NCBI GenBank assembly: GCA_951406725.2
Contig: OX597830.1
Coordinates: 77,004,001 to 77,068,000 of the forward strand
Direction of reading: 5' to 3'
Length of the DNA: 64,000 nucleotides
DNA from: Octopus vulgaris
Taxonomy: Eukaryota
The notes below the pieces were generated by a model that did not search any database, had not been told where the DNA came from, and was given only the letters and a program-made list of their open reading frames with translations. Every line of letters begins with the position of its first letter. Position 1 is the first letter of the stretch. The translations under genes and the position numbers were made by a program. Below, piece by piece: positions 25,498 through 26,515 of this stretch.

Positions 25498-26515
25498 AAG
25501 CAATAAAGGGTTTAGCAACGAATTGCCTTACCACAGACCGAATTTAGAAATAGCAGTCAAAGAGTTATAGCTATTTCTTCTACTAAAAAAGGGAGATCTC
25601 AGTAAAAAACACAGCAATTGGAAGGCAGACACAAACAGGTAAGAGAGAATGAATTGACGGCATTTGAATGAATTGACGAAATTCGGTCTGTGGTAAGGCA
25701 ATTCGTTGCTAAACCCTTTATTGCTTAGTATTACTTAAATTTTCCTCGAATGAGGCTTTTACATGCCGAAGACTACTTGGTGTAATTGATAATTATTCCA
25801 AATTAATTAATTTCACCCTTCATTATTACGGATAACCATATTTTATCTCAGTAGATGACCATAGCATCTTGTTTTGGCTACACGCGGGTGGGAAGGGGCT
25901 GGTGACACAATCCTTTCATTCACACTTTGAGTTTGGTGATACTAGTTGCGGATTCTAGCTCGCTCTGATACTGAGTTGAGTTGGTGCCTTCTAGTATCTC
26001 AAAATTCAATATATAATCACTTATGATTATAGTATTCTACGCTGAAGAGAAAAGAAGTTTGGGTAACGTAGAATTATTTAATATTTAATTCTTATGCTTT
26101 CCTAAAAACTTGATTTCGAAACGTGCGTCCGTAGATAACTTAAAATTGTATGATAGATTGCCGTCAATTCATTCTCTCTTACCTGTTTGTGTCTGCCTTC
26201 CAATTGCTGTCTTTTTACTGAGATCTCCCTTTTTAGTAGAAGAAATAGCTATAACTCTTTGACTGCTATTTCTAAATTCGGTCTGTGGTAAGGCAATTCG
26301 TTGCTAAACCCTTTATTGCTTAGTATTACTTAAATTTTCCTCGAATGAGGCTTTTACATGCCGAAGACTACTTGGTGTAATTGATAATTATTCCAAATTA
26401 ATTAATTTCACCCTTCATTATTACGGATAACCATATTTTATCTCAGTAGATGACCATAGCATCTTGTTTTGGCTACACGCGGGTGGGAAGGGGCTGGTGA
26501 CACAATCCTTTCATT
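25498..26515 (+). mobile_element. Non-autonomous Penelope-like / retrozyme element (595-bp unit x1.4 plus inverted 5' segment)
   Basis: Direct repeats at 25679-25920 and 26274-26515. 25498-25662 is the reverse complement of 26159-26321. HHR at 26036-26135. (TA)n on both flanks. Confidence 0.9.
26036..26135 (+). ncRNA. Type I hammerhead ribozyme with 69-nt extended stem II
   Basis: Stem I TCTACG/CGTAGA, core CTGAAGA, stem II GAAA/TTTC plus AAGTTT/AAACTT plus GAATTA/TAATTC, GAAA, stem III AC/GT with loop GTGC, GUC cleavage site at 26129. Confidence 0.9.

Follow-up and report, generated by a model that had tools for sequence, protein, structure and literature searches.

A young hammerhead-bearing retrozyme family in Octopus vulgaris, probably copied from a monomeric RNA by a Penelope-type enzyme

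The window that we analyzed, a stretch of 64,000 nucleotides from Octopus vulgaris (contig OX597830.1), contains a non-coding repeat in which a segment of 242 bases occurs twice, another segment is inverted, and TA repeats lie on both sides. What kind of element is this, and from what template was it copied? A sequence-only reading had taken it for a young retrozyme or non-autonomous Penelope-like element with an intact hammerhead ribozyme. We find that it belongs to a dispersed family whose other copies bear on both questions. Positions within the unit (q) are window positions minus 25920. The insertion has the following parts.

25446 to 25495, no strand: left (TA)n target tract
25493 to 25662, minus strand: arm 1, q239-406; its 3' end is the commonest end in the family, site S1, with one substitution near that end
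25663 to 25678, no strand: junction insert of 16 bases, probably a scar of end-joining, in which 13 bases are copies of sequence in the adjacent arm
25679 to 26515, plus strand: arm 2, 837 bases, made of q354-595 and one whole unit
25679 to 25920, plus strand: overlap of 242 bases (first of its two copies), which is not an LTR
25921 to 26515, plus strand: full 595-nt unit, phase arbitrary, 35% GC, non-coding
26036 to 26135, plus strand: motif of a type I hammerhead ribozyme, with cleavage predicted between 26129 and 26130
26049 to 26117, plus strand: 69-nt stem II, whose base pairs covary and which is 30-78 nt long in sister families
26230 to 26430 (about q310-510), plus strand: structured block that sister families A-D conserve; probable region of recognition and priming for the reverse transcriptase (RT)/endonuclease
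26316 to 26337 (q396-417), plus strand: site S1, mode 26326, with 84 of the 136 outer 3' ends of the family
26421 to 26441 (q501-521), plus strand: site S2, modes 26429 and 26436, with 36 of the 136 outer 3' ends of the family
26516 to 26567, no strand: right (TA)n/(ATAG)n target tract

The direct repeats, at 25679 to 25920 and 26274 to 26515, agree at 242 of 242 bases and have a spacing of 595. Their identity is as the sequence-only reading had it, but they are no more than the overlap of one arm of 1.4 units. The inverted copy that it had placed at 25498 to 25662 is also present, although the arm extends five bases further, to 25493; it matches q239-406 at 97.6% over 170 bases. The proposed 13-nt duplication was found at both 25647 and 25666 and belongs to the 16-base insert at the junction, which is resembled by templated inserts at other loci (L177, L220, and L024). 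The (TA)n on both flanks and the lack of a credible ORF were likewise borne out: the longest stop-to-stop frame in the insertion is 68 amino acids, and no ORF with RT and GIY-YIG domains lies within the window element or contiguous with it. The 3' end of arm 2, at q595, is atypical and is among the 16 of 136 ends outside S1 and S2. Folded as a circle, the 595-nt unit has a z score of -5.1. In the account that we prefer (below), the window copy would be a two-arm product, with one arm for each primed cDNA.

The window also contains a purine tract of the (AGA)n type (about 700 bases; 26838 to 27543); a dispersed 737-base repeat that begins in (ATT)n, with copies at 2307 to 3042 and 59353 to 60085 that are 92% identical; and a 267-base direct repeat (56153 to 56419 and 56720 to 56977; 95% identical, spacing 567) that begins at a TA tract and might be another tandem element. 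An abundant SINE-like repeat (3990 to 4400, 9190 to 9650, 32620 to 33090, 45935 to 46310, 50120 to 50610, and 58310 to 58770) is also common beside insertions of the family.

The genome is 2.8 Gb in size and rich in microsatellites. When 40 of 1,794 candidates were scored, they gave at least 183 matches to the unit, with the best at 97 to 100%, and two exact markers had 228 and 386 matches genome-wide (0 for controls). The copies are tandem non-coding units with one hammerhead per unit and no LTR structure. The 595-nt unit is a young dispersed family of hundreds of copies. The analysis upholds the earlier claim of a young, mobile, non-coding, multicopy tandem family with a conserved type I hammerhead. 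Sister families have units of 601, about 602, and 562 nt, in addition to family C, and the structured block at about q310-510 is common to them. A degenerate 20-mer from this block had 6,266 matches, compared with 2 for a control. The two 3' ends of the family recur in families B, C, D, and A'. More divergent sister families with the conserved block, many of them fold-back two-arm stubs, are present at L334, L339, L346-L348, and L351-L353. The same insertion is found in local duplications at L158/L162 (C1:216.17-216.18 Mb) and L126/L128; one of these pairs lies beside an assembly gap.

Judged by testable features of its sequence, the 595-nt family is a new family within a known class, the animal non-LTR retrozymes (non-autonomous Penelope-like elements). 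A literature search of openly available main texts returned no published account of the family or of paired priming sites in a retrozyme. The unit had been thought longer than animal retrozymes; instead, it falls within the sizes given in the available texts of 10.64898/2026.07.22.740005 (51-972 bp) and PMC7229834 (150 to >1000 nt).

Does the unit encode a ribozyme? The motif has the type I core (CUGANGA, GAAA, and UH) and a three-way junction with open stem I. Its anatomy agrees with the first description: a stem I of 6 bp, CUGAAGA and GAAA in the core, a stem II of 69 nt, a stem III of 2 bp with a GUGC loop, and a GUC site with the predicted cut after 26129. Among 23 aligned copies, which were hand-picked from three families, the core is invariant except for N7 and H17, and 9 of 32 base pairs have a compensatory change, which was reached by none of 500 shuffles. 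Stem III is invariant among these 23 copies and is therefore uninformative on covariation. The Rfam scan that had been suggested as a check found no hammerhead at E values up to 5, only microsatellite-driven miRNA matches; the likely reason for the miss is the long stem II. In folding, another suggested check, positions 26030 to 26140 in isolation fold weakly (z = -1.5). In the whole unit, stem II pairs with probabilities of 0.95-0.98. The corresponding values are 0.22-0.85 for stem I and 0.01 for stem III (in the monomer), and the active fold lies about 2 kcal/mol above the minimum. The strand of stem III is self-complementary (duplex, -8.8 kcal/mol), and older subfamilies have a perfect GUAC palindrome in the loop. 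Because stem III is weak and its loop is self-complementary, cleavage would probably occur as a dimer. Dimer cleavage has been described for this arrangement of stem III (PMC4209133). In other systems, 8 of 9 predicted Xenopus retrozyme dimers failed to cleave in vitro (10.64898/2026.07.22.740005), and a Penelope RT did not require hammerhead cleavage (PMC11167929).

The length of stem II had been put forward as a special feature of the motif. The 69 nt of the window copy compare with 60 nt in family B, 52 in family C, 30 in family D, and up to 78 in variants; since the length differs among sister families, it is a variable periphery. We rejected the long stem II as a novelty for this reason and because unrelated hammerheads with stems II of 39 to 68 nt are present in the fetched loci. 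The available text of PMC3088659 has nothing on very long stems II. Both the length of the 595-nt unit and its long stem II are unexceptional. We also considered whether stem I might pair with a look-alike inside stem II, which folding did not favor.

The genome seems rich in hammerhead motifs. An unrelated tandem family (L192:485-1070) has a spacing of 491, a stem II of 68 nt, and a longer stem III, and more unrelated type I motifs have stems II of 14 to 54 nt (L038:38-123, L034, L053, L042, and L064:2309). Within the 595-nt family, L228 has A-to-G changes on both strands of stem I in every covering unit, giving two G-U pairs, which could reflect an RNA-level change before insertion.

How were the copies inserted? 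The fetched loci were merged to 93, of which we kept 92; one duplicated locus was removed, as were arms that had been duplicated in a segmental duplication. The sample was partly picked by best score, which favors long arms. Across these 92 loci there are 136 outer 3' ends: 84 at S1, 36 at S2, which is about 100 nt from S1, and 16 elsewhere. TA repeats adjoin 127 of the 136, and the ends have 1-4 bases of TA microhomology. The 5' ends are scattered round the unit. Copies that always had fixed ends were to have been read as a plain pLTR fragment; the 3' ends are fixed and the 5' ends are not, the unit wraps seamlessly, and no ORF is attached, so the mobile-element reading stands.

Most single-arm loci (40 of 48) end at S1. 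The 44 two-arm loci comprise 29 that pair S1 with S2, 4 with S1 on both arms, none with S2 on both arms, and 11 with another end. By our own arithmetic, about 16 of the 33 fully canonical loci would be mixed pairs if ends were drawn independently, compared with the 29 observed. Because one arm ends at each site in 29 of the 44 inverted insertions, the inverted arm is likely a second primed cDNA and not the result of a template switch. A template switch had been the original explanation for the inversion in the window; however, arm 1 carries the commonest 3' end of the family, so it was likely primed as a cDNA of its own and then joined head to head. Microhomology and templated inserts are marks of end-joining. 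Among the arm-to-arm junctions (47 rows, including two duplicates), 11 are blunt, 21 share 1 to 6 bases, and 14 have inserts, several of which are copied from adjacent sequence. Candidate target-site duplications are present in 8 of 44 single-arm loci, and these are mostly low complexity; TA tracts obscure such calls. Tandem copies, an inverted arm, an optional tail, and a microsatellite target are the signature of Penelope-like elements (PMC8557442), and the insertions have this structure, as the sequence-only reading had maintained. The end pattern also agrees with an RT that starts at two internal sites and extends both strands (PMC11167929).

Copying beyond one unit, which had also been proposed, is likely: of 145 arms, 66 are longer than 600 nt and 13 are longer than 1,195 nt, and the longest is 3,119 nt. 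The unit follows on from itself up to five times with no intervening sequence. We compared variants at sites covered at least 2 times in a locus, skipping homopolymer zones, and considered variants to be common if they were found in at least 4 loci. In 119 of 122 cases, all units of the locus that covered the site carried the common variant, and in 75 of 77 cases both arms did; 59 well-covered loci had 25 haplotypes. Subfamily A' repeats this uniformity (22 of 23, from nine loci). Private variants were present in all units in 13 cases, in some units in 5, and in a single unit in 78, and one rare variant was in some, not all, units of a locus. Array-wide fixation of a new variant needs repeated copying of one unit, and we therefore infer a monomer stage. 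The partly shared variants imply either mixed multimers among the templates or local conversion; the five private variants and one rare variant that some units of a locus carry and others lack count against a uniform monomer circle. Passages through the predicted cut are nearly all seamless (8 differences in 2,998 bases of the core, stem I, and stem III), which favors a ligated circle over jumps. The variants suggest that the template was likely a monomer, and likely a circle, that was copied repeatedly.

The unit is contained in 20 of 24 listed public runs, under six organism labels; none of the runs is on record as RNA. In run X1, which is only guessed to be RNA, one contig of 626 bases has ends that overlap by 30 and gives a closed loop of 596 nt spanning the cut site; tandem DNA or a multimeric transcript would produce this loop equally well. 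Contigs for the unit were fragmented in runs X5, X6, and X13. Unit-bearing runs X13, X14, and X17-X20 are labelled as five other organisms, and the version in X13 has a GUAC loop and a stem II that is longer by 7 bases.

Some arms begin at the predicted cut. In a survival test of 72 arms, 5 stopped at q208-214, compared with 1.4 expected (P = 0.013, uncorrected); the excess is weak once other peaks, such as a similar one at q579-585, are taken into account. Genome-wide, all 7 matches for arms starting at q211 were true junctions; these represent 5 events, of which 2 were new and 3 had been seen before the pattern was chosen. At q210, 3 of 5 matches were junctions and 2 were substitutions. About 0.6 junctions would be expected per position. 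At one locus (L289), both arms begin at the cut, and two of the cut-site junctions are imprecise rejoinings. Junctions at the cut imply that some templates were linear, and we take these breakpoints as moderate evidence for germ-line cutting by the ribozyme and for a share of linear templates of a few percent. A control position for 5' ends was discarded because it was confounded by a letter of the 601-nt subfamily: all 42 matches (30 fetched) had the same letter, and none had the other two letters.

Which protein might act on these RNAs? Of 148 GIY-YIG matches, 16 lie within an open frame of 781 amino acids with an RT domain (just under the Pfam cutoff), a CX4CXXC linker, and a GIY-YIG domain; this layout is of the Neptune/Nematis type according to PMC8557442. 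The ORF-bearing Penelope-like family in this genome inserts in (TA)n and also has two ends, separated by about 30 nt; at L051, each of the inverted arms carries a different one of these ends. Young copies of this family (L051-L054, L061, and L062; e.g., L052:2206-4551) have an intact 781-aa RT/GIY-YIG frame, are 97.6-99.5% identical, and have a tail of about 30 nt and, near the 3' end, a hammerhead-like motif with a U3-A8 core variant.

The suggested genome-wide search found the many tandem copies, but it did not find an autonomous GIY-YIG/RT partner that shares sequence with them. In particular, no DNA was shared between the unit and an autonomous element in 32 GIY-YIG loci (150 scored of 6,136 candidates), and no ORF-linked copy was found by a GIY-YIG scan with 12 extended loci or by searches with the conserved-block profile, the sister families, and the degenerate motif. 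Among sister-family loci, none was seen to be contiguous with an ORF. Flank sequences that are common to different loci of the 92 are other repeats, beyond the TA tract. Apparent ORF links in L056, L038, and L325/L355 were rejected as neighboring insertions across TA tracts. At L355 (C1:1257500-1267400), a two-arm stub is followed by (TA)8 and then by a decayed Penelope-like 5' region and ORF fragment, which we read as a nested insertion.

The account that we prefer, and consider probable from the pattern of copies, is that this is a non-autonomous Penelope-like element (an animal non-LTR retrozyme) that targets (TA)n and is reverse-transcribed from a ribozyme-excised, likely circular monomer RNA. 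Tandem copies would be transcribed, the hammerhead would cut once per unit, probably as a dimer, and the monomers would be ligated. A Penelope-type RT/GIY-YIG protein would then bind the conserved block, nick (TA)n, and prime one strand at S1 and often the opposite strand at S2. The cDNAs would each travel a variable distance round the template, and their two ends would be joined head to head by end-joining. The same element could instead have been copied from a linear template, either a mostly uncut multimer or cut monomers joined by RT jumps, with circles absent or a by-product. This would account for the junctions that coincide with the cut, including the two imprecise rejoinings, and for the variants in only some units of a locus; stem III hardly forms in the monomer, and unprocessed RNA is the main in vitro substrate of the anole element (PMC11167929). 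Yet linear copying alone only shortens arrays and passes on mixed ones, whereas 119 of 122 common variants are fixed per locus, and the seamless passages through the cut (8 differences in 2,998 bases) also speak against it. We consider a linear template unlikely, while giving it appreciable weight.

We give far less weight to the idea that the copies are truncated terminal repeats (pLTRs) of a not-yet-found autonomous Penelope-like element. The insertion signature is the same as that of Penelope-like elements, and one stub does lie beside a decayed Penelope ORF fragment, but the two are separated by (TA)8, no sister-family locus is contiguous with an ORF, the flanks of the 92 loci share only other repeats beyond the TA tract, and the unit wraps up to five times with nothing in between. 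Slightly less probable still is satellite-like growth, in which about one unit was inserted and the array then expanded in place through DNA-level duplication or conversion. The fully shared variants and the partly shared ones could both result from conversion, and this route was proposed in 10.64898/2026.07.22.740005; against it, the 3' end of every arm is primed and the 5' end is free, the haplotype is common to both arms in 75 of 77 cases, and 78 private single-unit variants are unconverted.

More broadly, the copies may represent a large clade of ribozyme-made RNA circles (more than 6,000 matches to a motif that they share), with the Penelope mechanism directly legible in the insertions: one enzyme complex would use two fixed sites, some 100 nt from each other, to prime the two target strands and would roll round the monomer circle, the cDNAs would be end-joined, and rare linear templates would leave fossils of in vivo cleavage. 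We see the prospects of this broader proposal as evenly balanced. If true, it would supply the missing evidence that retrozyme circles are templates for transposition, and it would define the RNA signal that recruits the Penelope enzyme.

A circular-template model for retrozymes is already published (PMC7229834, PMC4209133, PMC7761336, 10.64898/2026.07.22.740005). Circles as templates with Penelope enzymes as helpers were proposed in PMC7229834 and PMC4209133, with phylogenetic support only in 10.64898/2026.07.22.740005, and PMC8557442 and PMC11167929 raise the question of how tandem and inverted insertions arise in Penelope-like elements and how these elements use the hammerhead. Very young and present in high copy number, the 595-nt family has a conserved recognition block and mapped sites of priming, and the genome also encodes intact candidate enzymes, which makes both questions testable with short RNAs. 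The element class is already known; the value of the family is that the mechanism can be read from its copies.

Like the animal non-LTR retrozymes (PMC7229834; 10.64898/2026.07.22.740005), the 595-nt family has a non-coding tandem unit in the same size range, with one type I hammerhead each and low GC, and it co-occurs with Penelope-like elements. For retrozymes, the available texts do not describe fixed 3' ends in pairs, targeting of (TA)n, arms joined head to head, uniform haplotypes, or junctions at the cut site. Metazoan retrozymes have no conserved motif pointing to a helper, according to the accessible part of PMC7761336, whereas here a 200-nt block is conserved across at least 4 families; stem II is also far longer than the canonical 4 bp. 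The non-autonomous Chlamys elements, such as MRC1 (PMC8557442), are similarly multicopy, with head-to-tail insertions and pLTR-like overlaps. However, their 3' end resembles an autonomous family, and they are mostly without hammerheads, while the 595-nt family has a hammerhead and no such partner was found. Endonuclease-positive Penelope-like elements of the Neptune and Poseidon types (PMC8557442, PMC11167929, PMC4209133) share the partial tandems, the inverted truncated arm, the optional tail at one end, and the microsatellite targets, as well as a hammerhead upstream of two RT start sites and extension of both target strands. The 595-nt family differs from them in having no ORF, a tail of about 100 nt instead of 30-40, 1-4 bases of TA microhomology at its ends, and a canonical rather than a minimal hammerhead.
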